From an uncultured Gammaproteobacteria bacterium (GTDB lineage Bacteria; Patescibacteriota; Microgenomatia; Levybacterales; GWA1-39-11), in the NCBI GenBank assembly GCA_964452165.1, contig CAYVKP010000001.1, positions 490,729 to 554,728 on the forward strand: a stretch of DNA of 64,000 bases, in the 5' to 3' direction. A program made the translations under genes and the position numbers. This document shows positions 2,844 through 41,325 of the stretch, piece after piece (within the stretch, counting starts at the first letter, position 1; every line of letters begins with the position of its first letter). Below the pieces are notes generated by a model. It had not been told where the DNA came from and did not search any database. It saw nothing but the letters and a program-made list of their open reading frames with translations.

Positions 2844-3845
2844 GTGAATAAGACCTTAAATAAAGAAAGTAAATCAGAAAGAACTGCACTCGTATGTGGA
2901 GCAGGGGGATTTATCGGTAGTCATTTGGTCAAAAGACTGAAGAAAGAAGGTTACTGGGTCCGAGGAGTTGACGTTAAAAAGCCTGAGTACGGCAAAACAG
3001 ATGCTGACGAATTTATAGTAGGAGATCTAAGAGATCCTGAATTCTGCAAAAAAATTCTCAATATTCCATTTGACGAGGTTTATCAATTAGCCGCAGATAT
3101 GGGTGGGGCAGGATACATATTTACGGGTGAACACGACGCGGATGTAATGCACAATTCCGCACAGATTAATTTAAACATGATGCATTTTGGACAAAAAACG
3201 GGAATAAAAAAAATATTTTTCTCCTCTTCGGCATGTATTTATCCAGCGCACAACCAGACGGATCCGAACAACCCTAACTGCGCGGAGGAATCAGCGTATC
3301 CCGCGGCTCCTGACAGTGAATATGGGTGGGAAAAATTGTTTAGTGAGCGAATGTACCTTGCTTATAATCGTAATTACGGAATGGAAGTGAGAATCGCCAG
3401 GTTCCATAATATATTTGGTCCTGAAGGCTCTTGGAATAACGGAAAAGAAAAATCGCCCGCTGCCATATGCCGAAAAATTGCCGAAGCTTCAAATGGCGGA
3501 ACGATAGAAATTTGGGGAGATGGAAAACAGACACGTTCCTACCTATATATAGATGAGTGCCTTGAGGGGGTACGGAGATTAATGGAGTCTGATTTCATGG
3601 GCCCTGTCAACATTGGCTCAAGCGAGATGATTAGCATAAATGCACTTGCGCAGATGGTTATGAAGATTGCCGGCAAGAACGTGAAAATAAAACACGTAGA
3701 CGGTCCCCTTGGAGTTCGTGGGCGGACATCTGACAACTCTTTAATTGAGGAAAAACTTAAATGGAGACCGAAAGCGCCGCTACAGGATGGTATGGAAAAG
3801 ACATATTCTTGGATCTTGAAGCAAGTAGAAAAATCTCGTAAATAA
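2844..3845 (+). CDS. NAD-dependent epimerase, GDP-mannose 3,5-epimerase (GME)-like
   Basis: The GAGGFIGSHL Rossmann motif is present. A long stretch, SSSACIYP...AYPAAPDSEYGWEKLFSERMYLAYNRNYGMEVRIARFHNIFGPEGSWNNGKEKSPAAICRK...IEIWGDGKQTRSYLYIDECLEGVRRLMESDF, is near-colinear with plant GDP-mannose 3,5-epimerase from memory. Confidence 0.6.
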   Translation: MNKTLNKESKSERTALVCGAGGFIGSHLVKRLKKEGYWVRGVDVKKPEYGKTDADEFIVGDLRDPEFCKKILNIPFDEVYQLAADMGGAGYIFTGEHDADVMHNSAQINLNMMHFGQKTGIKKIFFSSSACIYPAHNQTDPNNPNCAEESAYPAAPDSEYGWEKLFSERMYLAYNRNYGMEVRIARFHNIFGPEGSWNNGKEKSPAAICRKIAEASNGGTIEIWGDGKQTRSYLYIDECLEGVRRLMESDFMGPVNIGSSEMISINALAQMVMKIAGKNVKIKHVDGPLGVRGRTSDNSLIEEKLKWRPKAPLQDGMEKTYSWILKQVEKSRK

Positions 3846-3846
3846 A

Positions 3847-4671
3847 ATGACAAAAAACTTAGTAATAGGTTCAGAGGGTTTTATTGGGAAGCCATTTTGC
3901 CAATTTCTTGAAGGAAAAGGTGAAAGCGTAATCCATTTCGACGTCAAAAGAGATCCGAAAGAAGACGGCAGAACCAGCAAATTCAATTTTGAAGACATTG
4001 ATAAAATTTACTTTCTTGCATGGGATGTGGGTGGATCAAAATACCTTTATGAAAAAAAGCTTCAACTGTCTCAGCTCAAGTGGAATTTAGATCTGATGAG
4101 AAATATTTTCGATTCAATAGAAAAGCAGAAAAAAGACTTTCTCTTTATCTCAAGCCAATTGGCGGAAGAGTGTGACACGGTTTATGGAGTCACGAAAAGG
4201 CTAGGTGAAGTTTGGACAAACGAGCTTGGGGGAGTCTGCATAAGAGTGTGGAATGCATATGGGGTGATGGAGCCAATGGATATTAAGAGCCATGTTATCT
4301 CAGATTTCATATATCAGGCATTGACAACAGGTAAAATTAAAATGCTAACCAATGGAGAAGAATGGAGGCAGTTTACTCATATCCGAGACTTGTCTCGCGC
4401 ATTTCACACGGCACTAAACTCCAGAAACATACGCAGAACCGTATACGATGCCAGCAGCTATGAATGGGTCAGGATTATCGATATTGCAAAAATAATTTGC
4501 GATATAACGGGGACAGAGCTTTACCCCGGAAAAAATAAAGGTCATGATCCGATGCCGTCATTAAATATGGGAAGAGTTCCGGACTGGCTGCCCGAAGTTT
4601 CATTAAAGGAAGGCATTCGGGAGATGGTAGAGCAAGCAAGGGAAAATCTGAAGAATGGCAAAAAACGATAA
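3847..4671 (+). CDS. NAD(P)-dependent epimerase/dehydratase (SDR family)
   Basis: N-terminal LVIGSEGFIGKPF Rossmann motif. Placement with the GME-like gene suggests a nucleotide-sugar reductase/epimerase. Confidence 0.5.
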   Translation: MTKNLVIGSEGFIGKPFCQFLEGKGESVIHFDVKRDPKEDGRTSKFNFEDIDKIYFLAWDVGGSKYLYEKKLQLSQLKWNLDLMRNIFDSIEKQKKDFLFISSQLAEECDTVYGVTKRLGEVWTNELGGVCIRVWNAYGVMEPMDIKSHVISDFIYQALTTGKIKMLTNGEEWRQFTHIRDLSRAFHTALNSRNIRRTVYDASSYEWVRIIDIAKIICDITGTELYPGKNKGHDPMPSLNMGRVPDWLPEVSLKEGIREMVEQARENLKNGKKR

Positions 4672-5905
4672 ATCCTCTCTTTTAAAAAACTCCTCCATTT
4701 TGTTCGTAACTTTCTCACGTTGGGAGAACGGCAAACGATTGCCTACCAGTGGAAGTCTCAATCCGCTCCGAGACTTCCTCCTACCTAAAATTAAGAAGCT
4801 TGTACTTGTCGACCAACCCCACCCGGGTAGCGATAGGGTTATGCCAAAAATCGAGGAATATAATGGTGATAAAGAAAATTTTAAATCCCATGAATCGTCA
4901 TGGTATGTGCGTTTGTTGAGGTCGTATCTTGAAAGTTCACGTTCTCAAAAAACCCAAATAAGGTTTAAGTTGCGAGACTTTTTATCTGTAATTGATTGGT
5001 CTTTACGTGATAAAACTAAATTCGATTACGCCGTGTGTCTTGAAAGTATTAATACGTTAGCCGCGATTTTGCTAAGAAAACTAGGACGGGTTAAAAAAGT
5101 CATTTATTACGTTTCTGATTATTCTCCCAATAGGTATCCAAGTAAGTGGTTTAACTTTGTATATCTCGCACTTGACCGATTTTGCGCTGAGCATGCCGAT
5201 TATATTTGGGATGTATCGCCTGCAATGCAAAAGGCGAGGATTTCTGCGGGACTCGATCCTGAAAAATCAGCCCCCGTCATTGATGTTCCAAATGGGCTGT
5301 TACCGGCTCAAATAAAAGCTGCTCCCATCTCAAGCATAGACAAGCACGCAATAGTATATATGGGCACTTTGGGTGCCGAGAATGGGCCTGATATTCCCAT
5401 TAAGGCTCTCTCAATAATTCTTGACAAATTTAAAGATACTAAGCTACATATCATTGGAGGAACAAATGAGGATTTTCTTTGGCTTAAAAAAATCATCACC
5501 AAAATGAAACTTGGAAAATCTATCATCCGCCACGGGTTTATTGAAGATGAGCTCGCGATGTCCAGAGTTATAAGTCATTGCGCTGTGGGACTTGCGCCCT
5601 ATAGAAATATCCCCGGTTCCATCAGGCAATATGCAGACGCAGGTAAAATCAGAGCGTACTGTGCTGCCGGTATTCCTGTCGTGACCTCCCGCGTTCCACC
5701 TCTTGGTCACGTTGTTGCCGATAAAGGCGCGGCAATAGTTGTTGATGATGACCCGGCAGCTTTTGCGCAAGCCATTATAAACATTTTCTCAAATCAAAAA
5801 TTGTATATGACATTAAGACAGAACGCTATAAAATTCGGACAGGATAATACCTGGGAAAATTCTTTTAGGAATGCATTTGCATCAATGGGGAAAGTTACAA
5901 AATGA
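4655..5905 (+). CDS. Glycosyltransferase group 1 (GT-B fold, GT4-like)
   Basis: Shows GT-B C-terminal domain features (IVYMGTLGAENG..., E..GIPVVTSRVPPLGHVV...). Confidence 0.5.
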   Translation: MAKNDKSSLLKNSSILFVTFSRWENGKRLPTSGSLNPLRDFLLPKIKKLVLVDQPHPGSDRVMPKIEEYNGDKENFKSHESSWYVRLLRSYLESSRSQKTQIRFKLRDFLSVIDWSLRDKTKFDYAVCLESINTLAAILLRKLGRVKKVIYYVSDYSPNRYPSKWFNFVYLALDRFCAEHADYIWDVSPAMQKARISAGLDPEKSAPVIDVPNGLLPAQIKAAPISSIDKHAIVYMGTLGAENGPDIPIKALSIILDKFKDTKLHIIGGTNEDFLWLKKIITKMKLGKSIIRHGFIEDELAMSRVISHCAVGLAPYRNIPGSIRQYADAGKIRAYCAAGIPVVTSRVPPLGHVVADKGAAIVVDDDPAAFAQAIINIFSNQKLYMTLRQNAIKFGQDNTWENSFRNAFASMGKVTK

Positions 5906-6783
5906 AAAAAGAAACCTTTAATTATGAGGAGGTTTTTATGGGAGTCAATCAGGATAGGTCACGAGGATTTTATAAAAAGATCTTCTCGAAAAAACCCGAG
6001 CTCCGCCGCGTAGTCGGAATGTTAAAAGTTAAAAAAGGAAGAATATTAGATGTCGGTTGTGGAGGAGGGGATATGACGGAGTGTTTTCCATTCTATTTCC
6101 CAAAAGCAAAAATTTATGGCTGCGACGTAAGCGAGACCGCAATAAAGTATGCAAAAAAGTTTGGCACGGGGAAAGTTTCATATAAGCCAATGAGAAAAAA
6201 GCTACCCTATCCTTCAAATTATTTTGATGCACTTACGTGCCTAGATGTTTTGGAGCATATACCTGACGTAAACTATTTCCTCGATGAGGTGAGAAGAGTT
6301 TTAAAACCGGGGGGACTTTTTCTGGGTGCCATACCCTGCGAAGGTCAGCCCTATACAATTAGCTGGTTGCTAGATAAGATTGGTTTTTGGGGAGACCTAA
6401 CCTTCAAACATGTCGGTCATATTCACCCTGAGTTCACTCACGATTACATTGTAAGACTTTTTACCCGAAAAGGATTTGAAATACAGGAAAAGAGGTTCTC
6501 TGAAAGAATTCCAGTACAGCTCCTTCGTTATCTTCAGTTTATGATTCCAAAAGAGATTTTGGAAATGGTGGTTGGTAAGAAAAAGGCTGTAAAATACTAT
6601 GACAGAAGCGTTTCGATTCAAAAAGAGAGCCGTAAAAAGGATGGGCTGATGTCCTTGCGAGTCTTATGGTATAGGTTACGCTCTTTGACGAAAATTATAG
6701 ATGATATAGACGCCGAGTACTTCAAGGATTCAAACTTCGCAGCCTGGAAGATCAATCTACTTGCTTCATGCAAAAATAAATAA
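5902..6783 (+). CDS. Class I SAM-dependent methyltransferase
   Basis: [11 protein letters not shown] (motif I), LDVLEHIPD and LKPGGLF (motif post-II/III). Confidence 0.65.
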
Positions 6784-6821
6784 ATCCTGTTACAATTCCC
6801 ATATTAATAGAAGATAGATTC

Positions 6822-7433
6822 ATGTCAAGAAATGCCAGGGAACTTATTAAGATTATAAATAGGAAAGGCTTCCTCGAGACTTTAGTTGAGGCGTTCAGAT
6901 TGTTTGCGCAAAAAACCACATCACTTATTAAGATTTCCATCTTAAGGTTGAGAGGGTATAATATCGATTATTCGGTTCTACTAAGGGGTAACAACAATTT
7001 TTTCCAAAGCGTAAAAAATTCCATTACTATTTCAGGAAAAGTAACTCTTGGTAGGGCCACTAGGATGACTGCGGGAGGGTCAGGGAAAGTTCACATAGGT
7101 GAAAATGTATTAGTCGACGACTCTACTTTCATAATGGCTCATGAGAAAATCGAAATAGGAAAAAATACTACGATTGCCGCTTTTTGTTTTATTACAGACT
7201 TCAATCATAGCTATAAAAACGGCAGTGTTTCGGTTCTTGAGCAGGGGTACGAAACAAAGCCGATTTCAATTGGCAAGAATGTTTGGATTGGCACACACTG
7301 TATTGTTCTCCCTGGAATAAAAATTGGCGATGGGTCAATTATAGGCGCTGGATCAGTTGTTACTCACGATGTGCCCGAAAACTCCATTGCAGTTGGAAAC
7401 CCTGCAAGAATCGTCAAGAAGATTAAAAGATGA
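6822..7433 (+). CDS. Hexapeptide-repeat (LbH) acetyltransferase, sugar O-acetyltransferase-like
   Basis: C-terminal [46 protein letters not shown] shows typical left-handed beta-helix hexapeptide repeats. Confidence 0.65.
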
Positions 7434-9703
7434 AAAGATTAAATAGTCGAGGAAAAGTTCACGTTTCTAAAATTGTCCACTTTATTAATATCGCAAACAT
7501 TTTTGTTGTAGGGTTGCTGATATTATTGCCCTTTTTTTTGTTTGATGGAAGACTATTTCTTGGGGGAGATGATACCAGGTTTTACATGGTCTACCCGAGG
7601 GAAATACTTAACAGCTTCACTCTCTATTCCTGGAATAATATTTCCTCTTTGCCTTATTACATACCAAATCATTATTGGTTGCCCTTCGTTTTTGTGGGGT
7701 CGGTGATCGACAGTATATTAAATTCCAAATTAATTCTGTCCTATTTTTCCTTTTCCGCAGTTCTTGTTTTGGGATTTATTTATTTTCAGAAATTTATTCG
7801 TCAGTTGATAGGGGAAGAGTATTCAATCGCTTTTGTGACAGGATTGATTTATCTTCTTTCTCCAATAACTCTCGTCAGTCTATCTTTCTTCCTGGCCCCT
7901 GTTTGGCTAATCGCATTGGTTCCTATTGTTGCGTATTACTACATATGTTACTTGAGGTGGGGAAAAATCGTTGACATTATAAAAGTTGTAGCATGGTCAA
8001 TTTTACTATCCTTTGTATTTTTTTCTATACCTTGGATATTAGGTCTACTTTTACCTTTATTTTTAGGAATGATCTTTTTTTTGATTTTCGTCGAAAATCC
8101 CTTCAAGAGTTTACTTAAGAGATCTCTTATTTTCGTTTTCTTTATTATTTCGAGTCAATTATTTTGGTTAATCCCATTTGCCGCCTCTCTAGTCTCGGGT
8201 GGACAGACTAGTTTGGGACAGAAGATCGTCTCAACGGATCTTGCGACCAGTTACAGAAATACAATCCTTAGCACTGCAACAGATAATATCGTATACCCGT
8301 TACTTACCATGTATCACAGAAGAATGGTTTTCGAATTTGGGTGGCATCTAAAAGATATATTTCTTAATTATTTCGATCACGTTTTACCTTTGAGCGCCAT
8401 TTTTCCAGTTGTTTTACTCTTGGGAATTATCAAATACAATCGAGTTTTTGAAATCGGCAAGAAAAAAATGTTTATTTTTCTTCTTGCATCTTTTATTAGT
8501 GTCCTTTATTTATGTACGGTAAATGTCGGGTTTTTGAAAAATGTATTTATACTTTTGGGTTATCTTCCGGGCTTTGCTGTTTTAAGAAACTTCACCGATA
8601 AGTTTGCTTTGGCTTTTATATTTATTTACGCCACGCTACTTTCCTTTTGTTTTTTAGCTATTAAAAAATCCTACAAGTTGTACGCCATAACATTATTAGC
8701 AACGCTTGCTGTCGTTTTGATAAATTTTGTGCCTGTTAAGAGAATGATTAGTGCCCCTTTATGGAAAACTAACAACACTTACACTACTGTTAATTTACCC
8801 AAGGAATATATATCTTTCATTAAGAAGACAAAGCTGACTATTCCAAGCACTACCAATATAATTGCATTACCTCAAAATATCACGGCATACTCAATAATCA
8901 CCGAAGATAACGGCAGAAATGCTTATGTTGGTACATCTCCGCTCAAGTTTTTTACAGGCATAAATGATCTGACCGGTACTGATTCTTATCCAAGTTTTAT
9001 ATCTCAAGAGATTCAGCGGTTGATTGTCAAAAGAGACTATAGTAATCTTCTTACTTTATTCACCCAAATCAATGCGGGGTACTTGATGGTTACCAACAAT
9101 GCACCTCGCGAAGTTAAGGATTCTTACCTTTATGACAGAGATTACTTGAAGTTCCAAGATAAGCAGCTTATAGACTCTATCGTAGAACGCGAGGTGGTCC
9201 GTAGCAGCAAGGGCAACTATGTAATCTACAAACTCAAAAACTCTTCAAGTATTATATCTTCCGGAGCAAGACTTGAATACAAGAAAATTAGCCCGGTGGA
9301 CTATGAAATTAAATTATCGAGCTTATCAGGTAATAAGGATCTGTTTTTTAAAGAGACGTACCATCGGGGTTGGAGTTTATATGTAGCTAAAAAAAATCAA
9401 AACCATGAATCTTCAGATTTTAAATTCGATTTTTTACTTCCGCTTAGTAAGCCTGTTTTTACGGCCTCACATGTTGGACAATTGCCTTATGGTAACAAGT
9501 GGGTGATCAACGGAGATGTGATAAAAAATGATTTCGCTAAAGACTATTATACGGAAAACAAGGACGGGTCAATTGATGTTAAGCTTCACTTGTATTTTGC
9601 TCCGCAATTCAATTTCTATATAGGATCCATTATGAGCTTCATATTTATGATAGTTGGTGGTTTATATTTATGGAAGCTAGACAAGAAACAAAATGAGAAA
9701 TAA
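7430..9703 (+). CDS. Polytopic membrane protein, GT-C-like glycosyltransferase candidate (paralog A1; YfhO/AftD-like architecture)
   Basis: The N-terminal half (~430 aa) has more than 10 predicted TM helices, with an [11 protein letters not shown] acidic motif after TM1 as in GT-C enzymes. A soluble C-terminal domain ends in a TM ([21 protein letters not shown]). It is paralogous to 11907..14216. Confidence 0.45.
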
Positions 9704-10718
9704 AGTAAGCAAATATTTCAATAAAATAATCTCATCAAAGACTGTCAAATGGATTGTAATTCCATGCGTGCTAGTTTTGTTGTGGATTTCGCTTTCTCTA
9801 TTTTACAGTTCGTATAGGAGTTTTACGGTTCTGCAATACGCTCACTCACAGGATAAGGATAATCATTCCCGGGGTGGGAAGCTATTAAAAGGAAAACGAC
9901 TTACGGGAGTATTTGAGGCTCGAGAAAATTATCTTGGAATAGTTGCTGTCAGATTTGGAGACGTCTCAAAGTTAGACTTTGACAAGGAGGATTTGATCCT
10001 ATTCAAGATTAAAGAACGTGGACAAGACAATTGGTTATATCAAAACATGTACAGATCTGGTTCCTTTACTTCAGGCCAGTATTTCCCTTTCGGATTCGCA
10101 GAGATCAAAAATTCTAAAGGTAAGAGGTACGAATTCGAAATTACTTCTCTTAGAGGTAACGTGGATAATTCTCTCGAGACAAAGCTGGTGAATCCGATTT
10201 ATTTGACTAAGTATAAATTTCCTAAAGATATAGCTTTCAAAAATCTCAGTTCGACCATAAGTTTCATGAGTAAAAAGTTGATAACATTCTTCACGAATAT
10301 TGATTCACTATTATCATCGACAGTATTCATATTGCCTTTAGTTTTCTATTATGTATGGATTTTACTCCCAATGAAAGTAATAAAAAACACCTATAAAACA
10401 GACGGCAAGAAAATTTTCGGAGTACTGGTTGTAATTTTGTTACTTAGCGATGTTGTTCTATACGATTTTATAAATACAGGCTTAATGCTTGGACTTCTTG
10501 GTCTTTGGTGTCTGTGTGTGTACTTGAATAAATTAAGAAGTAGCTTAACCTTTGCTCTAGCATTTTTACTCATCTGTATATCCATGTTTAGTATATACTT
10601 CGGTTTGGGAGTATCTGTCGATAAAGCATCAGCTTTTGCCTATTTATTTTTTTTGACAGGACTTTTTCAGATCGTTGGTGAATATAGACATGACAAGAAG
10701 CTTTTTACTTCAAAATAG
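9693..10718 (+). CDS. Membrane protein of unknown function (paralog B1)
   Basis: N-terminal TM, ~200-aa extracytoplasmic domain (GIVAVRFGD...LFKIKERGQDNWLYQ...FPFGFAEIKNSKGKRYEFEITSLRGN) and C-terminal 4–5 TM helices. It is paralogous to 14213..15199. Confidence 0.5.
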   Translation: MRNKVSKYFNKIISSKTVKWIVIPCVLVLLWISLSLFYSSYRSFTVLQYAHSQDKDNHSRGGKLLKGKRLTGVFEARENYLGIVAVRFGDVSKLDFDKEDLILFKIKERGQDNWLYQNMYRSGSFTSGQYFPFGFAEIKNSKGKRYEFEITSLRGNVDNSLETKLVNPIYLTKYKFPKDIAFKNLSSTISFMSKKLITFFTNIDSLLSSTVFILPLVFYYVWILLPMKVIKNTYKTDGKKIFGVLVVILLLSDVVLYDFINTGLMLGLLGLWCLCVYLNKLRSSLTFALAFLLICISMFSIYFGLGVSVDKASAFAYLFFLTGLFQIVGEYRHDKKLFTSK

Positions 10719-11703
10719 GTGACAGGATTGTACTAAAATGCTCAGCAATCTTTTTCTGACTTGCGAGCGAGGGATGTATGTCGTCTGAGAAATCTCCATT
10801 CACAAGCCAGCTGTAGGGATCTACAAAATACGCTCCATACTCATCCGAAATTTTTCTAATGATTCTGTTGTAGTTTTCAAGTTGGCCCTTGTCAATGTCT
10901 CTTCTTGGCAACGTTGATACTAGAAATATTTTTGCCCCTGAATTAAAGTGCTTAACGTCGCCAACAATCTTGTAATAATCGCGTTCAAAATTATCAAGAT
11001 TCACATTTCCTGCCGCGTCATTTGTCCCTAGAAAAATAATTATAGCATCAGACTTAAAGCTCAGCAGATCCTTTCTGTAGCGGTAAATCGCGTTGTCTAC
11101 GCCTTTCATTTGTGAGACGGTAGACTGTATTATGCTTGCATTGTGAAGTTCATATCCAATATCATCCGCTAAAATCTGACTATAGTTATCTTTTCCGTAG
11201 ACCGTTGAAATGGAATCACCCAAAACTGATAGAATCTTATTGTGGAGTCTATATTGGAATAGATGAGCGTTTCCTTCAAGATATATTCCCTTCATTCTGA
11301 TCTGGCAAGGAAAATAAAAATGACTGCACGTGTGCCTGACGGTTACTGTATGGGCTGATGTTTTATCTACCGAGATGGACAATTTTTGGCTATCAAGGTT
11401 TGGAGATGAGAGAGAGTAGCCTTTTCCATCAACGAAAATTTCAACTCCCTGATCGGATTTTGATGTAGTCTCAAACTCAAAGTCTACCTCGCGGCTTCGG
11501 GAGAACATGAAATTTAGTTCGCTTCCCGCGTATAGGCTTTCGTTGTCTTTCCAACCGACACCTCGGTTGATTAGACTACTGTCTGCAAAGTTCTTAATTC
11601 CTTGAGCAGCTGGCGTGTGGGCGTATGTCAAAAACGACACTACAAGAGTTAATGCCACAATAACCAGAAGTCTAGTGCTGCTATCTGATAACTTTTTTCT
11701 CAT
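10705..11703 (-). CDS. SGNH/GDSL-family hydrolase (secreted esterase/acylhydrolase)
   Basis: Signal/TM N-terminus, then VLGDSIS (block I), FLGTNDA (block III) and DDIHPS (block V DxxH). Confidence 0.65.
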   Translation of the reverse strand: MRKKLSDSSTRLLVIVALTLVVSFLTYAHTPAAQGIKNFADSSLINRGVGWKDNESLYAGSELNFMFSRSREVDFEFETTSKSDQGVEIFVDGKGYSLSSPNLDSQKLSISVDKTSAHTVTVRHTCSHFYFPCQIRMKGIYLEGNAHLFQYRLHNKILSVLGDSISTVYGKDNYSQILADDIGYELHNASIIQSTVSQMKGVDNAIYRYRKDLLSFKSDAIIIFLGTNDAAGNVNLDNFERDYYKIVGDVKHFNSGAKIFLVSTLPRRDIDKGQLENYNRIIRKISDEYGAYFVDPYSWLVNGDFSDDIHPSLASQKKIAEHFSTILSPILK

Positions 11704-11906: not shown

Positions 11907-14216
11907 ATGAATTTATTAAGAAAGAACTCTTTTATAGTTATAAACATTGTTGTAGTTTTGCTCTTATTTTCTCTCCCTTATTATTTGTTTGGTGGGAAGT
12001 TATTTCTGGGAGGTGACGATACAAGACTTTTTTATATTTATCCTAAGGATTATTTAGTCAACGTCCCGTTTTTTTCTTGGACCAATTTATCTTCAATAGG
12101 TTGGAGCTTTTCATACCAAACATTTATTCCGTTCGTTTCCGTGTGGGTCATACTTTCGGAAGTTATAAGAAATAAAATTATTTTAGGATATTTCTCTTTC
12201 TCTCTACCTTTGGTTTTAGGGTTCGTTTTTTTCCAAGAGTTTACACGCGAGCTAATAATTGAGAACAAAGATAAATATAAACCGGAGATATTGGCGGGCG
12301 CTCTTTTTTATACTCTCTCCCCTATAATAATAAATAATCATTTCCTTAATCCTCTCATACCCATATGGCTAATCGGTTTGATTCCCGCACTTTGTTGTTA
12401 CTTTTTAAGATTTCTGAAAACGGGCGAGTACAAAAATGTTTTCATATCAATTATTCTTACTACTATTTTTTCATTCGGCTCTCACAATATTCCTTGGCTC
12501 GCGGGGTTTCTGATGCCACTCGTTCTTTCTCTCGTGGTGTGTTCAGTTCTATTCAGTAAACACGACGTTTACACTTTCATAAAAAGGATTGCCATTTTTT
12601 CTACAATTACTTTGGTCTCTCAGGCCTTTTGGTTATTTGGCTTCGTAATTACGTTTATAAATCCGAGTAGCAGCAACGTTGCCTCAAAGGTTGTCTCGGG
12701 AAGCTTTGTTAATGATTTTGCAAGGTCGGTTGAAGCGACATCTGTCGGGACAATTATTTATCCTCTCTTAAATCTTTACCAAAGACAAATCGCTTTCGAC
12801 TTCGGTTGGAATTTGAAGAATATTTACCAATTATTCTATGACAAAATCTATTTCTTAAATGTCATCTATATAGCAATCCTGTTTTCAGGAATTTTAAATC
12901 TTGCAAAGAATACGAGTAGGCTGGAGCGGAAAATATTCTTAATTCTTCTATCTGCGTTCATTATTGCTCTCTTCTTGTTTACAATAAATATTGGCTCGCT
13001 TTTTAATTTTTACATTTGGCTCGGACACATTCCGGGGTTTGTATTATTCAGAAATCCGTATGATAAATTTGCTCTCGGATATGGACTCATCTATTCACTT
13101 TTAATCACGTACTGCCTTATTATATTGAACCGCAAGTATAAGAAGATAAACTTCACAGGGCTTTCAATTGTCGTAGCATTTTTTGTAGTCGTCATGATCA
13201 ACGCTTTGCCTACAAGGGCAATAATCGTCTCTCCGTTATGGACCACTAAGAATATTTATAAAAACATTATTATTCCTAAAGAGTATTTTGATTTTATGAC
13301 ACAAATAAAGACTAAGATTTCACCCTCGAATAATATACTGAGTTTACCTTACGGTTTGTCGTTATACACAATCATAAAAGATCAAAGTTCAAATAACGTT
13401 TATGCCGGCGTCTCGCCCGTCGTAATGTTTAGTGGCGTAAACGATATCTCAGGATACTTATCATTTAATTACACCCCCGAAGCAACTGCGTTCGATCGCG
13501 CCATAGTGGGCAGAGACTACAACGGCATGAATAATATTCTATATACGCACAACATAAATTATGTATTTTTAACAAAAAATATACCCGAGGAAGTGAAAAA
13601 ATCCTATCTTTTCGTGCCTGAAGTTATGAAAAATCAGGATGGGGAATTTCTCTCCAAAATAACTTCAAAAAAAATCATAACAAGCACTGAGGGCAATTAC
13701 GAACTTTATGAAGCAAAAAAAAGAAACCTTCAAATCGCTTCGGATAACTCTCTTTTTAAAAGAGTAAGTAGGGTAAGATACGAGATTTTAATAAAAAATA
13801 TTAAGAGTAGGCAAGAGTTGGATTTCAATGATACCTTCCATGAGGGTTGGAAACTATATTTACAGCGTGGGGCGTTCAACTGCCAAGATCCTAAGAAAAT
13901 AACCGAACTTAAGACAGTTGAATGTCAACCTGATCCTAAAATGTTTGAGCCAAGTGACTTGACCTATCTATGGCAAAAAAGTGTTTTTGATAAGTCTCAC
14001 AGTATTAAGAATGGCTTTTCCAATAAGTGGGTGATTGACCCCGTTTTTATTAAGAGAAGCGTAGACAAAAAACTCTATACGTTGAATAAGGATGGTTCGA
14101 TTGATCTACGACTGACTTTGTACTTTGAACCTCAAGAGTATTTTTACATAGGTGGTCTGATCAGTATTTTGACTATTGGGTCACTATTTATTTTTGTTGT
14201 TTTTAGACGAAAATGA
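11907..14216 (+). CDS. Polytopic membrane protein, GT-C-like glycosyltransferase candidate (paralog A2)
   Basis: [15 protein letters not shown] after TM1. It aligns along its length with 7430..9703 (GYFSFS..LVLGF.FFQ.F.R.LI; C-terminal DGSIDLRLTLYFEPQEYFYIGG + TM). Confidence 0.45.
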   Translation: MNLLRKNSFIVINIVVVLLLFSLPYYLFGGKLFLGGDDTRLFYIYPKDYLVNVPFFSWTNLSSIGWSFSYQTFIPFVSVWVILSEVIRNKIILGYFSFSLPLVLGFVFFQEFTRELIIENKDKYKPEILAGALFYTLSPIIINNHFLNPLIPIWLIGLIPALCCYFLRFLKTGEYKNVFISIILTTIFSFGSHNIPWLAGFLMPLVLSLVVCSVLFSKHDVYTFIKRIAIFSTITLVSQAFWLFGFVITFINPSSSNVASKVVSGSFVNDFARSVEATSVGTIIYPLLNLYQRQIAFDFGWNLKNIYQLFYDKIYFLNVIYIAILFSGILNLAKNTSRLERKIFLILLSAFIIALFLFTINIGSLFNFYIWLGHIPGFVLFRNPYDKFALGYGLIYSLLITYCLIILNRKYKKINFTGLSIVVAFFVVVMINALPTRAIIVSPLWTTKNIYKNIIIPKEYFDFMTQIKTKISPSNNILSLPYGLSLYTIIKDQSSNNVYAGVSPVVMFSGVNDISGYLSFNYTPEATAFDRAIVGRDYNGMNNILYTHNINYVFLTKNIPEEVKKSYLFVPEVMKNQDGEFLSKITSKKIITSTEGNYELYEAKKRNLQIASDNSLFKRVSRVRYEILIKNIKSRQELDFNDTFHEGWKLYLQRGAFNCQDPKKITELKTVECQPDPKMFEPSDLTYLWQKSVFDKSHSIKNGFSNKWVIDPVFIKRSVDKKLYTLNKDGSIDLRLTLYFEPQEYFYIGGLISILTIGSLFIFVVFRRK

Positions 14217-15199
14217 AACTTAAAGTTCGCGCAAACATCTTGAATATAGCAAAGCTCGTAATCGTTGGTCTATTGCTGATTTTTTGGGTAGTCTCATCAC
14301 TTTTGTTTGTAAACCACCTCAGCTTTACTATCGTAACGTTTCAAACTAGAAATGACCTTCAGATAAAGAATAGTACAGTTGATGTTGATGAGAGGAACGT
14401 TTACGAAGGGCAGTTTACTTCCCGCGATAACAATTTGGGACTCATAATCCTTGAAATTGAAAAATATAAAAACCCCGCATTTGGTAAAGAAGGTATTGTT
14501 GCTTTTAAGCTCCAAGAAAAGGGTAAAAATGACTGGGGTTTTCAGAAAGAATATAGTAGCGGATTATTCGATAGCCAATCTGAGTTTGCGTTTGGTTTCC
14601 CGCCAATTCCCGATTCAAAAGGCAAAATATACCTCTTTCAGCTGTCGTTAAAGGGGGAGGCCGACAATAAGATGAAACTTGAGGCCAATAACTACATTGT
14701 AACTGGATATCAATATTCAAAGTCGGAGATACGAAAAAACAAACTTCAGGCGATTGAATTTATCTTCAATAAAACACTCGGATCATTCACGGATACAGGA
14801 TTTGTTATTAAATCGCTCAAATATCTGTTCCCTCTAGCTCTCTTTTTGATTGGGTTTTTTGGTTTGAAGAATATCCGGATTCGTTTCAAAAAAGAGCACT
14901 TAAAAATACTTTTTGTAGGGATGGTTTTATTTGAATTGTTGTTTTCAAAATATATTCGCGTAGAAGGGTTTTATGTGTTGTTGGCGCTTTGGATATTAGC
15001 AATAGCAGTTTATGAAATTAAGAGTCGTGTATCGTTTATTTTAGGCTTTTTACTTATTACTCTTTGGGCTTGTATAATTCCCTTAGGACAGAAGAGTTTG
15101 GAGAGTAATTTAAATGTATGGATCTATGCGTTATTTGTAATCGGTTTTATTCAATTATTAATTGAAGAGAGGAGCAATAATGAGAAAAAGAAGCCTTAG
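14213..15199 (+). CDS. Membrane protein of unknown function (paralog B2)
   Basis: Same architecture as 9693..10718, with matching sequence blocks (GLIILEIEKY...VAFKLQEKGKNDWGFQ...FAFGFPPIPDSKGKIYLFQLSLKGE). Confidence 0.5.
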   Translation: MKLKVRANILNIAKLVIVGLLLIFWVVSSLLFVNHLSFTIVTFQTRNDLQIKNSTVDVDERNVYEGQFTSRDNNLGLIILEIEKYKNPAFGKEGIVAFKLQEKGKNDWGFQKEYSSGLFDSQSEFAFGFPPIPDSKGKIYLFQLSLKGEADNKMKLEANNYIVTGYQYSKSEIRKNKLQAIEFIFNKTLGSFTDTGFVIKSLKYLFPLALFLIGFFGLKNIRIRFKKEHLKILFVGMVLFELLFSKYIRVEGFYVLLALWILAIAVYEIKSRVSFILGFLLITLWACIIPLGQKSLESNLNVWIYALFVIGFIQLLIEERSNNEKKKP

Positions 15200-15854
15200 A
15201 AATACCTACGGCTATGGGCTATTTTTGCAAAAACAAAACCAAGTTTTCAGGGAGGACTTGTATAAAAGGTTGGAAGTTAAAAAAACTTTCGCAAATAAAA
15301 AAATTTTAGACTTAGGCTGTGGTGACGGTATAGACTCGGTGTTTTTGTCAAAATCTGCAAAGCTTGTAATAGGAGTCGATGTGATTGCCTACAGGCAGTG
15401 GCCATCATTAACAAATAAAAGATTAAGGTTTACTAAGGCTAATTCTACAAACCTTCCTTTTAGAGATAACACCTTCGACGGAGTTTACTTGAAAGATATG
15501 TTGCATCACATTAAGAACGTAGAAAAAACCCTGGAGGAGATCAAGCGTGTGACAAAGGCCGGTGGTGACATTGTAATACTTGAAGCAAATAGATATAACC
15601 CGATCTTCTATTTTTACGCTACCAAAATTAGGGGTCACGACCATTTTTCGCAAGGAGAGTTCAAAAATTTAATCAAAAGTAAATTTCCAAAGACTCGCTT
15701 CATTCATCTGGAGGCTTACCCACCTTTTCGTTTGCCAATGATCGTCTATAAGCTTGTTCAGAAGCTTGAGAACGGAATTAACAAGATACATCTTCTTGAT
15801 CCCATTTTTTCATACAACTTGGCAAAAATAAAAAACACTAAACAAAAGACTTGA
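15162..15854 (+). CDS. Class I SAM-dependent methyltransferase
   Basis: ILDLGCGDGIDSVFL (motif I), DGVYLKDMLHHI and TKAGGDIVILE. The true start may be the internal Met at ~15180. Confidence 0.6.
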   Translation: MKRGAIMRKRSLRNTYGYGLFLQKQNQVFREDLYKRLEVKKTFANKKILDLGCGDGIDSVFLSKSAKLVIGVDVIAYRQWPSLTNKRLRFTKANSTNLPFRDNTFDGVYLKDMLHHIKNVEKTLEEIKRVTKAGGDIVILEANRYNPIFYFYATKIRGHDHFSQGEFKNLIKSKFPKTRFIHLEAYPPFRLPMIVYKLVQKLENGINKIHLLDPIFSYNLAKIKNTKQKT

Positions 15855-17700
15855 GGAGACTTGCCCGATTTTTTACCAGGTATAAAATCCAGAAGGAAAA
15901 AGTGGAAATGGAGACTATTAGACCGTAATAAAAGGGCGTGGAGGAATAAATAAATTTATAAACATGATTGCCCGGGACTGTTTCGACTTCCAAAAATCTT
16001 CCGACTAATAATTCCTGTTTTTTACCGTCCACAAACGCGTTCCAGCCGGGATATTTACTTTCAAGCAGTAATAAGTGTTTTTTACCCTCTGAATTGGCAG
16101 ATAGAGTTATCTCATTTACTGAAAAAACGGGCCTTTGAGGTTCTTTATCAATAGCTGCAAATGGCGTTGCCCCAGAATCCTTATAAAGAATGATATTCTT
16201 ATCGAATTCTCTTATTTTTTCAAGCTCCGCGTTTTCAATATTAGTTTTGCTAATGACAAATCCGGGTTTTAAGTCTACGTAAGATTTTTCTTCCCTAAAA
16301 TTATATTTTTCAGCCAAGCTTCCTTTCAGTATTAATCCATAGTTAGATTGCAGCATAAGTAGATGATGGAGATAGGCCTGGTCTTGGGGAATATCGCCTT
16401 GTGATGTGGCGTGAACGGTATAGTAGCTATTTGGGTTATTGTTTGCAATCCACACAAGTGGAGCTGTCGTCTCTTGGTTAATATTGCCGAATTCTTTTGT
16501 TGCTAAGATTTTTTGTGAGAAGGCGAATACCACAACTAGATTTAAAATCAAAACTACAATTGCAATAATCTTTCTTTTCCATGCATCAACTAACAATCCG
16601 AAAGAAAGCAGAATTATTATTCCCCAAAGCGCAAGTATTCTACTTGGAACATGGAAGTACTGCAGAGTACTGATGCTTGAAATAATGTAATAGAGCGGGT
16701 TGATAGGTGCATCGGGCGTTGAAAGCAGCAAAAATAAAATTGTTAGAACGATAAGAATTGGTATTTTTCCACTGGATTTTGTAAGTGAGGATTTGGCCAG
16801 GAAGTATAATCCCAGAATAGAAAACGGACCAATAAAAGAAAGACTTTCCCACCAACCGAATCCCGTCGATATAGCGTTTTTACTTACAATATTCAGATCG
16901 AACGGAAAAAATAAATTATATATAATGCTGAAGAAATTCAATCCCCCATTGAAAGGCTCCTTCGTTTTGGATATATAATTTTGCAGCTCTATCATCGGAA
17001 AGATTTTGATAGAGGAGAATAATAAGAAGAAGATGACGGTTAACATCAATAATAAAGAAACCTTTTTGTCCTTGAGCAGGTAATATAAAAAAATTGCAGC
17101 TGTGCCGTACAAACAATAAAGGCAATTGTATATATCGCCCGTGAAAAGAATTAATGAAAGAGTGATTGCGGCAAGTCCGGCCCACAATATTTTTCTGTCT
17201 TGAGATATTTTCACAATACAAAATAGAAACAAAGGGAGGAAGCCAAACGACACTACTTTTTCAATATGACCCGCAGCAACTCTTGACGCCAAATATGTAC
17301 CGCTTGCGTAAGTCATGGATATTAATGTAGAAACGGTTGGCGAAGTTTTATAGAGTCTTGCAAGACAAAACATTGATAAACACGCCAACAACACGGAAAA
17401 AAAATAAGTGACTTTTATGGCAGTGGAGTAATCAAAGATAAGAATAGGAATACTGATAACCGGATTGTATATTCCATACAACGGGTCGGCGATGGCAGGA
17501 ATTCCCTGATCAATATAGGGGTTCCACTGAGGAAACTTATGGTGCTTAATAACTGATTCTTTAAAGTGCAGAAGTGGTACAATGTTGCCATTGAGGTCAT
17601 TGCCGTTTATGACGGTGGGGCTTAGAATAAATTGTAATAAGACAAGCCAACTGAAGATAAAAAATAGAATAAAAACTTTAAGATTCATGAATAATTTCAA
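15838..17700 (-). CDS. Polytopic membrane protein, GT-C-like (paralog A3, minus strand)
   Basis: More than 12 predicted TM helices with an acidic motif after TM1. The C-terminal soluble domain plus terminal TM (VYKFIYSSTPFYYGLIVSISTF) resembles the tails of the A1/A2 paralogs. Confidence 0.4.
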   Translation of the reverse strand: MKLFMNLKVFILFFIFSWLVLLQFILSPTVINGNDLNGNIVPLLHFKESVIKHHKFPQWNPYIDQGIPAIADPLYGIYNPVISIPILIFDYSTAIKVTYFFSVLLACLSMFCLARLYKTSPTVSTLISMTYASGTYLASRVAAGHIEKVVSFGFLPLFLFCIVKISQDRKILWAGLAAITLSLILFTGDIYNCLYCLYGTAAIFLYYLLKDKKVSLLLMLTVIFFLLFSSIKIFPMIELQNYISKTKEPFNGGLNFFSIIYNLFFPFDLNIVSKNAISTGFGWWESLSFIGPFSILGLYFLAKSSLTKSSGKIPILIVLTILFLLLSTPDAPINPLYYIISSISTLQYFHVPSRILALWGIIILLSFGLLVDAWKRKIIAIVVLILNLVVVFAFSQKILATKEFGNINQETTAPLVWIANNNPNSYYTVHATSQGDIPQDQAYLHHLLMLQSNYGLILKGSLAEKYNFREEKSYVDLKPGFVISKTNIENAELEKIREFDKNIILYKDSGATPFAAIDKEPQRPVFSVNEITLSANSEGKKHLLLLESKYPGWNAFVDGKKQELLVGRFLEVETVPGNHVYKFIYSSTPFYYGLIVSISTFSFWILYLVKNRASLLKSFV

Positions 17701-20024: not shown

Positions 20025-20564
20025 ATGAGAATAGGAATCGATGTTAGCCAGCTTGCTTACCAGAATACCGGAGTAGCAAATTATCTTTCTGATTTGGTTT
20101 TAAAACTTATTGATACCGACCGGGACAACGAATATATTCTTTTTTTTTCAGCCTTACGAAGGAGATTGCCAATCAGTTTTGAAGAGAAGGTTAGAGAGTT
20201 GGCAAACGTACGGCTTAAAAAGTTTAGCATGCCTCCCGCGGTTCTTGACGTAATCTGGAATAGACTGCACATTCTTCCTATAGAAAACTTGCTTGGAGGG
20301 CTTGATGTTTTTTTGACTTCAGATTGGGCAGAGCCACCCGTACGCAGGGCCAAGAAGATTACAATTATCTATGACCTTATTGTCTATAAACATCCTGAAG
20401 AAACTGATCAAAAAATTATATCAGTTCAAAAGAGAAAGCTTGCCTGGGTAAAAAAAGAGAGCAATATTGTATTTTGTATCTCAGAATCAACTAAAAGTGA
20501 TGTCGAAAACATATTGGGAATTCAAAGTTCTAACGTTAAGGTTATTTATCCTGGAATATTATGA
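20025..20564 (+). pseudogene. Truncated GT4 glycosyltransferase, N-terminal (acceptor) domain only; possible gene remnant or split gene
   Basis: MRIGIDVSQLAYQNTGVANYLSDLVLKL...NEYILF parallels the N-terminus of the full GT4 at 29860 (MKIGIDCRLAKQTGVGRYTRNLIINLLKLDKKNEYVLF). It stops after ...VKVIYPGIL, before any GT-B C-terminal (donor-binding) domain. Confidence 0.4.
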
Positions 20565-22247: not shown

Positions 22248-23077
22248 TAATCCTCACGTATAACAGCGAGAAATTTATTGAGGAGACAATTGGAAGTCTC
22301 TTGGATTTTACTACTGGCACAGAAATAATAGTTGTGGACAACGCATCAACGGATAAGACTGTGAGTAAGATCAAAAAATTCGGGAAGAAGGTCAAATTTA
22401 TTGAAACAGGAGCCAACCTTGGGTTTTCAGCCGGAATTAACGTAGGAGCAAAAAAAGCGACCGGTGAGTATCTATTGTTCGTAAACCCCGACACAAAATT
22501 TAAAAGTGGAAACATAGAAGACATGATATCCGTATTTGACAACAACATTGATGCGGGAGTCGTGGGGGGAAGGATGCAGGCTGCGGACGGACATGTGGAA
22601 AAATCGACAGGAAAATTTTTTGGAGTTCTTGCAAGTATTTTAATTGCAGCAGGACTTGATGAGAAATTAGGAGTCAGGCGGTCTCCGGGCAAAATAGAGA
22701 AAGTTGATTTTGTCTCGGGCGGTTTCATGATGGTAAAGGCTGAATTATTTAGGAAATTGGGTGGATTTGACGAGAATCTTTTCATGTACGTTGAAGATAT
22801 GGAGTTATGTTTTCGCGCAAGACTTTCAGGATACTCAACTTACTTTGTTCCAAGCGTTGTTGTGACGCATATAGGTCAGGGTAGTTCCAATCGGGCATTT
22901 GCAATAAAGAATATTTTCAGGGGAGTTTTGTATTTTCACAAAAAACACGGAACACCTTTCTCATATGGAATTGTCAAAGCTCTTTTTACCCTCAAGTCTC
23001 TGACCCTTGTAACAGCAGGTAAAATAATGAATAATAAATATCTACTGGAGACCTATAGCGGTGCAGTCAAAACATGA
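22235..23077 (+). CDS. Glycosyltransferase family 2
   Basis: VSIIILTYNSEKFIEETIGSL...EIIVVDNASTDKT; DxD-type motif (VNPDT). Confidence 0.75.
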   Translation: MVSIIILTYNSEKFIEETIGSLLDFTTGTEIIVVDNASTDKTVSKIKKFGKKVKFIETGANLGFSAGINVGAKKATGEYLLFVNPDTKFKSGNIEDMISVFDNNIDAGVVGGRMQAADGHVEKSTGKFFGVLASILIAAGLDEKLGVRRSPGKIEKVDFVSGGFMMVKAELFRKLGGFDENLFMYVEDMELCFRARLSGYSTYFVPSVVVTHIGQGSSNRAFAIKNIFRGVLYFHKKHGTPFSYGIVKALFTLKSLTLVTAGKIMNNKYLLETYSGAVKT

Positions 23078-32079: not shown

Positions 32080-33162
32080 ATGAAAGCAGTAATTTTTGCA
32101 GGAGGCGTTGGGACAAGACTTTGGCCCATCTCAAGGAAAAATGCCCCAAAGCAATTTGAAAAAATATCAGGTGACAGTTCAACTCTTCAGCTTGCCGTAG
32201 AAAGGCTTTACCCTGACTTTGCACCTTCTGACATTTACGTCTCGACCGGCGATAAATACCGCGACATAGTGTACGAACAGCTTCCTCAAATTCCACGCGA
32301 GAACTTTATTTTTGAGCCCGAAGTAAGAGATGTTGGTCCGGCGGTTGCTGCGGCTTGTGCAATTGTTGGTAAGAATAATCCAAATGAGCCGGTGGCAATT
32401 ATTTGGAGCGACCATTTCGTCAAAAAAGAGAGAAGGTTTAGGGAAGTTTTGGGATTTGCCCAAGATTTGGTGCAGGAAAATCCCAAACTTTTGGTATTTA
32501 TAGGACAAAGGGCTAGATTCGCAAATCAGAATTTGGGTTGGCTCGAGTTTGGAGATGAAGTTAAAACAATTCGTGATACTAAAGTTTTTGCGTTTAAGCG
32601 CCTTGTTTATAGGCCCAGTCTTGAAGACGCGCAACGATATCTTGAATCGGATAATTTTGCCTGGAACCCCGGTTATTTTGTTACGACACCCCAATTTATT
32701 CTGGATTCTTACAAAGAATTTGCTCCAACAATTTGGGAAGGGGTAATGAAAATTCAAGAAGCCTTGGGAAGCGAGAGTTACGATAGGGTAATGAAGGAAG
32801 TGTATCCTGCTCTTGAAAAGATAAGCTTTGATAACGCCGTTTTGGAAAAACTCCCCACAGATAATGTATTGGTGATCGCAGCAGATCTTGGATGGAGCGA
32901 TGTGGGAGCGTGGGAAGCGCTTAAGGAAGCCCTTCAAATTGAGAGCTCGGAAAATGTAACTCGCGGAAAAGTTTTGCTTACGGATTCTTCGGACAATCTG
33001 GTTTTTAACTACACTGACCAGTTGACTACTGGAATAGACCTCGCCGGAATGATTGTGATAAATACGGACGACGTCTTGCTTATTTGTAATAAAAATTCCG
33101 TCCCCAAAATTAAAAAGTTGGTTGAGTCGCTCGCCGGGACTGAGCACGAGAATCTGACCTAG
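32080..33162 (+). CDS. manC: Mannose-1-phosphate guanylyltransferase (nucleotidyltransferase only, no cupin/PMI domain)
   Basis: MKAVIFAGGVGTRLWPISRKNAPKQFEKI is the typical ManC/GMPP N-terminus. Length is 360 aa. Confidence 0.7.
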   Translation: MKAVIFAGGVGTRLWPISRKNAPKQFEKISGDSSTLQLAVERLYPDFAPSDIYVSTGDKYRDIVYEQLPQIPRENFIFEPEVRDVGPAVAAACAIVGKNNPNEPVAIIWSDHFVKKERRFREVLGFAQDLVQENPKLLVFIGQRARFANQNLGWLEFGDEVKTIRDTKVFAFKRLVYRPSLEDAQRYLESDNFAWNPGYFVTTPQFILDSYKEFAPTIWEGVMKIQEALGSESYDRVMKEVYPALEKISFDNAVLEKLPTDNVLVIAADLGWSDVGAWEALKEALQIESSENVTRGKVLLTDSSDNLVFNYTDQLTTGIDLAGMIVINTDDVLLICNKNSVPKIKKLVESLAGTEHENLT

Positions 33163-33163
33163 T

Positions 33164-33802
33164 ATGTTCTACAATTTTGTAAAGCGAATACTTGATGTCT
33201 TTCTCTCTCTGATACTTCTGGTTTTCTTTTCTCCTCTAATTCTCGTTACGGCACTTGCCATAAAGCTCAATTCTCCCGGGCCAATCCTGGCGGACACTCC
33301 GGCTCGAGTAGGAAAAAATGGGAAGCTCTTCAGAATGTATAAGTTTCGTTCAATGATTAAAAACGCGCATGAAATACTTGCAAGCGACCCCGAATTCAAA
33401 AAACTTTATGAAGAATACAAAAAGGGAGGATATAAATTACGAGGCGACCCAAGAATTACAAGAGTCGGAAGATTTATCAGAAAATATTCAATAGATGAAA
33501 TGCCCCAATTCCTCAACTCCTTGAAGGGTGACATGAGTATCGTTGGACCGCGAGCCTATTATCCGGATGAGCTTCGTGATCAACAAAAAGAGTATCCCAA
33601 CACAAAAGACGCCGTGAAAATTGTGCTTTCGGTCAAGCCCGGGATAACGGGTGTTTGGCAAGTAACCGGGCGTTCGGGAATCAATTTTGATAAGAGAATT
33701 CAGCTTGATGCGGATTATGCAACCCGAAGGTCAATACTCTACGACATTTATATAATGGCCAAAACGCCACTTGCCATGCTATCCGGAAAAGGAGCCATGT
33801 AG
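33164..33802 (+). CDS. Polyprenyl-phosphate hexose-1-phosphate transferase (bacterial sugar transferase family, monotopic PglC/WbaP-C-like)
   Basis: ILDVFLSLILLVFFSPLILVTALAIKL...GKLFRMYKFRSM...DEMPQFLNSLKGDMSIVGPRA. These are hallmark motifs of the initiating phosphoglycosyltransferase family. Confidence 0.8.
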   Translation: MFYNFVKRILDVFLSLILLVFFSPLILVTALAIKLNSPGPILADTPARVGKNGKLFRMYKFRSMIKNAHEILASDPEFKKLYEEYKKGGYKLRGDPRITRVGRFIRKYSIDEMPQFLNSLKGDMSIVGPRAYYPDELRDQQKEYPNTKDAVKIVLSVKPGITGVWQVTGRSGINFDKRIQLDADYATRRSILYDIYIMAKTPLAMLSGKGAM

Positions 33803-40167: not shown

Positions 40168-40168
40168 T

Positions 40169-41323: not shown

Positions 41324-41325
41324 AA

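Follow-up and report, generated by a model that had tools for sequence, protein, structure and literature searches.

A probable GDP-mannose 3,5-epimerase and its conserved short-chain dehydrogenase/reductase neighbour in a Patescibacteria glycan-synthesis cluster

The GME–SDR2 gene pair

The DNA analysed here, a 64,000-nucleotide stretch from an uncultured bacterium placed in the Patescibacteriota (GenBank assembly GCA_964452165.1, contig CAYVKP010000001.1, positions 490,729 to 554,728; "the window" in what follows, with coordinates counted from its first letter), carries two adjacent genes for short-chain dehydrogenases/reductases (SDRs). The first, ORF1 (2844..3845, + strand, GTG start, 333 aa), can be assigned from its sequence with high confidence as a GDP-mannose 3,5-epimerase (GM35E or GME), and the second, ORF2 (3847..4671, + strand, ATG start, 274 aa), which we call SDR2, encodes a shortened extended SDR of the NAD type with an S103/Y113/K117 triad. 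Both reading frames are confirmed as delimited in an original prediction made from the DNA letters. A single nucleotide separates the stop of ORF1 from the start of ORF2, and the ORF2 reading frame overlaps by 17 nt that of a family 4 glycosyltransferase (GT4; 4655..5905, + strand, Pfam Glycos_transf_1). Neither gene is a chance open reading frame, since a protein search finds thousands of homologues of ORF1 (at least 8000 candidates) and a word search finds 612 of ORF2.

Among solved structures, ORF1 matches Arabidopsis GME (2c59) at 332 bits (E = 3e-98) over residues 16-332 without large gaps and at 49.7% identity, followed by Myrciaria GME at 323 bits, while the other families score far lower (UXS1 109 bits, GMER 77-92, RmlB and dTDP-glucose dehydratases ≤67). 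GM35E is set apart from GalE and GMER by eight residues, in Arabidopsis numbering the S143/Y174/K178 triad, the C145/K217 acid/base pair, R306, which acidifies the cysteine, R243, which binds the diphosphate, and N203, the base being a lysine where GMER has a histidine (PMC8787198). All eight match in ORF1 (S129/C131/Y160/K164/N189/K203/R231/R294 for S143/C145/Y174/K178/N203/K217/R243/R306), and none of them varies when ten homologues are aligned with the Arabidopsis enzyme. An NAD+ motif, GAGGFIG, lies at residues 19-25, and the blocks quoted as GME-like in the original prediction are found in the translation (SSSACIYP, GWEKL, RIARFHNIFGP, EKSPAAICRK, GDGKQTRS and IDECLEGVRRL) and align with those of 2c59. 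At the triad, ORF1 has SAC and lacks the acidic residues of 4,6-dehydratases (TDE or S-x-E), and it scores 21 bits against the TIGR gmd model.

That ORF1 is an ordinary GalE, UXS or GMER misread as a GME is hardly credible: Pfam and NCBIfam do return only generic Epimerase, GDP_Man_Dehyd and Fcl matches below cutoff, but such matches arise for ORF1 and ORF2 alike because neither collection holds a GME or an SDR2 model, and the misreading is opposed by a margin of 220 bits in favour of GME in the PDB and by the presence of all eight GM35E residues, including the lysine in place of the GMER histidine and Arg294. With GMEs as its best matches and Cys131 and Lys203 in place, ORF1 is of the GME type as first proposed, and its expected product is activated L-galactose or L-gulose for a surface glycan. 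The L-hexose suggested for this locus is upheld to that extent; the GDP-6-deoxy-L-hexose branch suggested beside it is unsupported, as no GDP-mannose 4,6-dehydratase is found among the ~57 window ORFs scanned.

The premise that GME is rare in bacteria does not hold and reflects older databases. Bacterial homologues numbered 43 in a 2011 count (PMC3220709), and UniProt held 18 entries in 2019, the year in which a bacterial enzyme, MfGM35E, 50.5% identical to Arabidopsis GME, was biochemically characterised (PMC6678494). We find that the best 120 protein matches of ORF1, besides a 100% self-match, are 74-83% identical to it, and that two GME-specific octapeptides recover at least 592 confirmed stretches from JGI metagenomes. 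The 80 loci kept from these (L047-L126) encode GMEs 66-75% identical to ORF1 in DNA ranging from 30% to 71% GC; the metagenomic GMEs sit in polysaccharide clusters of the usual kind, alongside GT4, WecG/TagA-like, Bac_transf and UDP-glucose dehydrogenase-like genes. Such high conservation across such different genomes suggests strong constraint, horizontal transfer or both. The nearest named relatives of both ORF1 and ORF2 come from metagenome-assembled genomes (MAGs) of Patescibacteria (Gottesmanbacteria, Woesebacteria and Nealsonbacteria), which points to a bacterium of the candidate phyla radiation as the source of the window.

A scan of GTDB genomes yields 46 loci that encode SDR2. In a neighbour-joining tree, the GME-adjacent SDR2s form one monophyletic clade of 25, including that of the window, and a true GME, 65-83% identical to ORF1, lies directly upstream of SDR2 in 24 of the 24 clade loci for which upstream sequence is available. 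A GT4 gene directly follows SDR2 in 19 of the 25, while in two more it immediately precedes GME, and a 757-aa membrane protein with its partner follows the module in six to seven related loci. In the reverse search, 59 metagenomic GME loci extend far enough downstream to be informative, and just one of them (L047, GC 0.35) has SDR2, which is there also followed by a GT4 gene and an acetyltransferase gene; GME thus has no requirement for SDR2, and their pairing is an innovation of one clade. This lock between GME and SDR2 is a trait of Gottesmanbacteria- and Woesebacteria-like genomes; a functional tie between the two genes is supported by synteny in a single clade. One GME from Nealsonbacteria has different neighbours. 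At that locus (L129-L131, 8959-11476), the genes after GME encode a 324-aa protein that matches no Pfam family and a radical SAM enzyme of the B12-binding kind, and the cluster around them has many methyltransferases; this may represent another route of L-hexose tailoring. We found no paper linking GME with Patescibacteria and none describing an SDR partner of GME; as far as we could find, neither the GME-SDR2-GT4 module nor the SDR2 family has been described.

The SDR2 family

An exhaustive profile search resolves the SDR2 family into 203 clusters at 50% identity (E ≤ 1e-30), nearly all of them 260-300 aa long. Conservation was scored on 44 of the 45 genome loci, aligned with the window. Positions conserved at ≥95% comprise G8, G11 and G14 of the GSxGxIG motif, D32, the segment YFLAWDVGG, S102-S103-Q104, E108, T111, Y113, K117, R133-x-W-N136-x-Y-G, H149 within the motif K/R-S-H-V-[IV]-S-D-F, R174, D201 and S204. 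An AlphaFold2 model of ORF2 adopts the extended-SDR fold (pLDDT 88.4, pTM 0.87), with the 146-148 loop as the sole poorly defined element of the active site. The protein is short by about 16 residues between the strand bearing the catalytic serine and the YxxxK helix, which leaves Ser103 and Tyr113 only 10 residues apart. Judged by these conserved features, ORF2 is probably a catalytically active enzyme. Foldseek comparison of the model with the PDB gives TM scores of 0.69-0.79 at ≤22% identity to UXS, GalE, MoeE5, TunA, WbmF, GMER, Cj1427 and GME, and no discriminating structural neighbour emerges from this search.

Profile-profile alignment (hhalign) relates ORF2 to ORF1 and GME with 96.5% probability and to Escherichia coli GMER with 94.7%; the GMER query sequence is identical to 1bsv. 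The three share a motif x-V/M-G-G after strand 4 (DVGG in ORF2, DMGG in GME and KVGG in GMER), and KSHVIS of ORF2 aligns with NSHVIP of GMER, which places His149 on the catalytic His179 of GMER. The xVGG and SHVI[SP] motifs are both absent from the UXS and UGAepi sequences inspected. These similarities point to descent of ORF2 from the lineage of GME and GDP-fucose synthase, and would place its invariant K147-S148-H149 loop at the position termed the 'purple wall', where GME has its base lysine and GMER its histidine.

The catalytic residues of these relatives are retained only in part. ORF2 has no cysteine two residues after the triad serine, where S103-Q104-L105 (with Q104 and L105 conserved) replaces the S-A-C of GME, and of the GMER pair Cys109/His179 the histidine aligns with His149 and the cysteine is absent. 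Because an equivalent of this cysteine is missing, 3,5-epimerisation by the mechanism of GME or GMER is unlikely for ORF2. The SQL sequence likewise lacks the acidic pair of 4,6-dehydratases, the gmd model is not among the matches of ORF2, and the score against the Fcl model NF047922 is 20.9 bits for a cutoff of 500. The end of strand β2 (FDVKR) resembles that of GME (VDVKK), and Asp32 aligns with Arg34 of GMER, which contacts NADPH. An aspartate after β2 points to NAD over NADP and is typical of cofactor-retaining, redox-neutral SDRs, and we infer that ORF2 belongs among them.

SDR2 also occurs apart from GME. In sister clades, from Paceibacteria/Parcubacteria and some MAGs outside the candidate phyla radiation (CPR), the gene sits between a Wzx-like flippase gene and GT2 or GT4 genes, with no adjacent GME, and the putative active site differs between the linked and unlinked clades only by the conservative replacements K147R, S64A, A137V, T177I and Y205F. 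GDP-L-fucose genes lie within 10 kb of SDR2 in four of the 21 unlinked loci: L027 encodes Gmd (561 bits, cutoff 415), Fcl (506 bits, cutoff 500) and a canonical GalE (381 bits), L026 and L036 carry Gmd and Fcl-like genes, and L034 carries an Fcl-like gene. An extra Fcl-like gene is present in four GME-linked loci. In some family members (P0304, P0313, P0267, P0344) the SDR2 domain is fused to another enzyme: to GT2, which may come first or second, to a sugar O-methyltransferase of the CmcI type, or to a GHMP kinase that best matches HddA, of the GDP-heptose pathway, and the fucokinase of FKP. Of the NCBIfam SDR models, the one that fits these divergent members best is in every case GDP-L-fucose synthase, at scores far below its cutoff. 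These observations indicate that SDR2 readies an activated sugar for a neighbouring transferase. Since GME or Gmd and Fcl are its neighbours and since it is fused as described, SDR2 can be tied to GDP-sugar metabolism, especially to enzymes yielding L-galacto sugars (GDP-L-Gal, GDP-L-Fuc), and we marginally favour its being a GDP-sugar enzyme.

Two simple substitutions fare poorly as an account of the family. A role as a replacement for GalE is weakened by the bona fide GalE encoded in the same locus as SDR2 in L027, and a role as a replacement for GMER is rejected in view of co-occurrence with canonical Fcl (L027, L026, L009) and by the absence of both the cysteine and the NADPH-binding arginine. 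Three further family members (P0297, P0368, P0385) carry extra regions of 160-560 aa without annotation. One unlinked locus, L044, encodes at 5157-7111 a PseB/FnlA-like UDP-GlcNAc 4,6-dehydratase (313 bits to PseB, 276 to FnlA) together with a short RmlD-like SDR, a further pathway of the L-sugar type beside SDR2, but one that is UDP-linked.

The surrounding glycan cluster

The gene pair belongs to a glycan-synthesis cluster that extends from 261 to 35879, entirely on the + strand save for ORFs at 10705-11703 and 15838-17700, and that comprises several glycosyltransferase genes of the GT2 and GT4 families, methyltransferases, acetyltransferases and large membrane proteins of the multi-pass type, as well as a PMT_2-type GT-C, ManC, a Bac_transf protein and a DUF4012 protein. 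Directly after the GT4 gene come a SAM-dependent methyltransferase (5902..6783, + strand), which overlaps GT4 by 4 nt and is found in seven related loci, and a hexapeptide O-acetyltransferase of the WbbJ/WcaF-like type (6822..7433, + strand), present in 20 of the 46 SDR2 loci. These are followed by the 757-aa multi-pass membrane protein and its 341-aa membrane partner (7430..10718, + strand), which have a GT-C-like layout and are duplicated at 11907-15199, the copies being 35% and 28% identical. The 757-aa protein has about 10 transmembrane segments, a soluble domain and a C-terminal transmembrane segment, and neither member of the pair matches a Pfam or NCBIfam family.

Further along the cluster, ManC (32080..33162, + strand) is a mannose-1-phosphate guanylyltransferase without a PMI domain; it contains NTP_transferase and ManC_GMP_beta-helix domains, scores 241 bits against TIGR01479 over the guanylyltransferase half only and, as originally proposed, is able to supply GDP-mannose. 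Next to it lies a Bac_transf phosphoglycosyl transferase (33164..33802, + strand), the initiating enzyme of a lipid-linked glycan pathway. Multi-pass membrane proteins of 620, 683 and 1082 aa are encoded at 15838-17700 (- strand), 17722-19773 and 23074-26322, the last with about 26 hydrophobic segments, and none of the three has a family match. At 20025-21703, a 179-aa ORF with an N-terminal Glyco_transf_4 domain only directly precedes a complete 380-aa GT4 gene, with which it overlaps; the short ORF may be the remnant of a glycosyltransferase or one part of a split one.

Upstream of ORF1, in and around a 45-nt intergenic region, are a terminator-like hairpin (2786-2807) and a promoter-like sequence, TTGATT-16-TATAAT (2807-2834), both on the + strand, although promoter-like sites near ORF1 do not exceed chance expectation in AT-rich DNA (38 versus 35.8 in shuffled sequence). 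These weak signals, together with the lack of conservation of the genes upstream, suggest that the GME transcription unit starts at ORF1. The upstream genes, at 261-2798, encode in a row a GT2, a polysaccharide deacetylase and a formyltransferase-like protein with an HxSLLPxxxG-type motif, and resemble ArnC, ArnD and the N-terminal part of ArnA; apart from the window's own strain (L127), L007 is the only locus in which they stand beside GME-SDR2. An Arn-like pathway formed by this trio and the two SDRs was considered and rejected, as the trio is not conserved and the window contains neither an aminotransferase nor a UDP-glucose dehydrogenase.

The remainder of the window holds a type I restriction-modification locus and a dcw cell-wall cluster. 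The former (36454-42459) consists of hsdR (from 36454), hsdM (from 38674) and hsdS (from 41326); the last two are separated by an inserted 384-aa gene (40169-41323) whose product carries a Shedu SduA_C nuclease domain.

Candidate reactions and comparison with known systems

We propose that ManC supplies GDP-D-mannose to ORF1, which would use tightly bound NAD+ to oxidise C4, invert C5 and C3 through Cys131 and Lys203 and re-reduce C4, and which would be self-sufficient as an epimerase. The equilibrium of GM35E favours GDP-mannose, with roughly 15 and 5 g/L of product formed from 100 g/L of substrate, and a downstream step must therefore pull the reaction. ORF2, translationally coupled to ORF1, would bind the GDP-L-galacto-type hexose, oxidise C4 with its retained NAD+, reposition the sugar and re-reduce C4, with the K-S-H loop positioning or protonating the sugar, after which the overlapping GT4 would attach the L-hexose so formed to a lipid-linked surface glycan, to be followed by O-methylation and O-acetylation. 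The substrate of ORF2, its reaction and its action in series with ORF1 are what we infer from sequence and gene order, and we regard the overall picture, in which ORF1 acts as GME, ORF2 modifies the GDP-L-hexose and GT4 transfers it, as evenly balanced between right and wrong.

Inversion of the 4-epimerase type is our leading guess for the reaction, drawn by analogy with archaeal enzymes, and it is a tentative one that we would sooner doubt than defend. ORF2 has the sequence traits of a 4-epimerase, namely S103/Y113/K117, the NAD-type D32 and the diphosphate-binding R174, each conserved at ≥95%; the SDR2 profile matches the archaeal 4-epimerase PhGal4E_1 (8rdg) weakly, at 24.6 bits, in an alignment that starts with S148/H149 against residue 182 and across loops of differing length. 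Somewhat less probable still is that SDR2 represents a new GDP-L-hexose-modifying activity, a minimal SDR of the GME/GMER lineage that provides Patescibacteria with a very rare L-sugar donor for their surface glycans. In that case the candidate substrates would be GDP-L-galactose or GDP-L-gulose beside GME and GDP-L-fucose in other lineages, and the candidate products GDP-L-glucose or the corresponding L-quinovose, L-allose, L-talose or L-idose derivatives.

Several observations weigh against this reading of ORF2. Besides the 58 of 59 metagenomic GME loci that manage without SDR2, about 17 of the 21 unlinked SDR2 loci contain no GDP-sugar gene in the sequence available. The putative active site is the same in the linked and unlinked clades, so the substrate of SDR2 need not be the product of GME. 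Against solved structures the SDR2 profile reaches ≤40 bits (Mth375, UDP-GlcA 4-epimerase, UXS1, MoeE5), ORF2 lies at about the same distance from UXS, UDP-GlcA 4-epimerase and GalE as from GME and GMER, and no member of the family is characterised. The register of K147 and H149 relative to the GME base is also uncertain, in that Lys217 aligns with His149, with Lys147 or with the residue before Lys147 depending on the method, a shift of 0-2 residues.

The strongest rival to action in series draws on the same facts. ORF2 might start from GDP-mannose, or from some other common nucleotide sugar, and make a further constituent of the same repeat unit, such as an epimer at C4 or C2, its adjacency to GME reflecting nothing beyond shared use in one glycan. 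The unchanging active-site residues are what such a role would predict, SDR2 is the only sugar-modifying gene between flippase and GT2s in most unlinked loci, and GDP-mannose, as the common precursor of GME and of Gmd/Fcl, explains both associations equally well, which further weakens the case for a GDP-L-hexose substrate. The strict adjacency to GME (24 of 24) and the near-zero spacing within the clade argue for the serial arrangement instead, and the canonical GalE beside SDR2 in L027 indicates that SDR2 is not a mere GalE substitute there; we consider a parallel supply of this kind unlikely, though less so than the other alternatives.

It is improbable that ORF2 is a 4-ketoreductase of the GMER or Rmd type, which would act on a GDP-4-keto or GDP-4-keto-6-deoxy sugar to give a 6-deoxy-L-hexose or a C4-inverted product. 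The GMER-like His149 and VGG motif are consistent with this activity, as is the preference of divergent members for the Fcl model, but the window has no Gmd to provide a 6-deoxy substrate, GMER Cys109 has no counterpart in ORF2, and a complete canonical Fcl adjoins SDR2 in L027. Reduction by ORF2 of a 4-keto intermediate made by its neighbour, as first suggested, is also unsupported on two counts: the 4-keto intermediates of GM35E stay enzyme-bound and are not released (PMC8787198), and ORF2 has the NAD-type Asp32 where GMER has its NADPH-binding Arg34. Least credible for ORF2 is the role of a non-catalytic or regulatory partner that forms a heterodimer with GME and shifts its product ratio, for although translational coupling and the conserved SDR dimerisation helices of ORF2 would suit it, the NAD motif and catalytic triad are invariant and the family occurs without GME and in fusions to GT2, methyltransferase and kinase.

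The interest of the locus lies with SDR2. The composition of CPR cell-surface glycans is, to our knowledge, essentially unknown, and the pair of GME and SDR2 would give a first biochemical handle on it. By itself the GME contributes little that is new, since GM35Es from bacteria have been found and characterised before and are abundant, and the module stays within the familiar theme of a nucleotide-sugar SDR in a glycan operon. SDR2, a small and strongly conserved family (~200 clusters at 50% identity) that synteny and fusions connect to GDP-L-sugar pathways, is a concrete target. Few enzymatic routes lead to L-hexose nucleotides, and more are sought for glycorandomisation (PMC8787198); GME together with SDR2 could supply a new one.

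Compared with the GM35Es of Arabidopsis (2C59), Myrciaria (8SG0) and Methylacidiphilum fumariolicum (MfGM35E), ORF1 is alike in length class, NAD motif, triad, Cys/Lys pair and Arg and Asn residues. It resembles MfGM35E further in lying in a polysaccharide cluster with an adjoining glycosyltransferase and methyltransferase, and differs from plant GME in lacking the N- and C-terminal extensions. Its clade stands apart from all the characterised GMEs in that an SDR2 gene always comes next, an arrangement undescribed for any of them. ORF2 shares with GMER/Fcl/WcaG (1BSV) the xVGG motif after β4, the SHVI[SP] motif with a histidine at the position of the catalytic base, the triad and an association with GDP-sugars, and departs from it in the missing Cys109, the aspartate in place of the NADPH-binding arginine and the ~16 fewer residues before the YxxxK helix (274 aa overall versus 321).

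The functional model for ORF2 is provided by the archaeal GDP-sugar 4-epimerases (PhGal4E_1, 8RDG/8RDH; 3EHE; 3AW9), which are NAD+-retaining SDRs. These accept GDP-L-Fuc and GDP-L-Gal with the triad only, and a mutant in the purple-wall histidine loses 93-99.7% of activity (PMC12171764). The SDR2 profile scores 24-33 bits against them, and the histidine lies 8 residues past the Asn of NxYG in those enzymes and 13 in ORF2. A close parallel in pathway design is that of MtdM and MtdL in A201A biosynthesis (PMC9937993): the latter is a GT75-type, Mn2+-dependent pyranose-furanose mutase and not an SDR, unlike ORF2, but MtdM, a GME, followed by MtdL, a GDP-L-galactose mutase, amounts to a bacterial GME served by a dedicated GDP-L-galactose remodeller that acts ahead of sugar transfer, the arrangement proposed here for ORF1 and ORF2.

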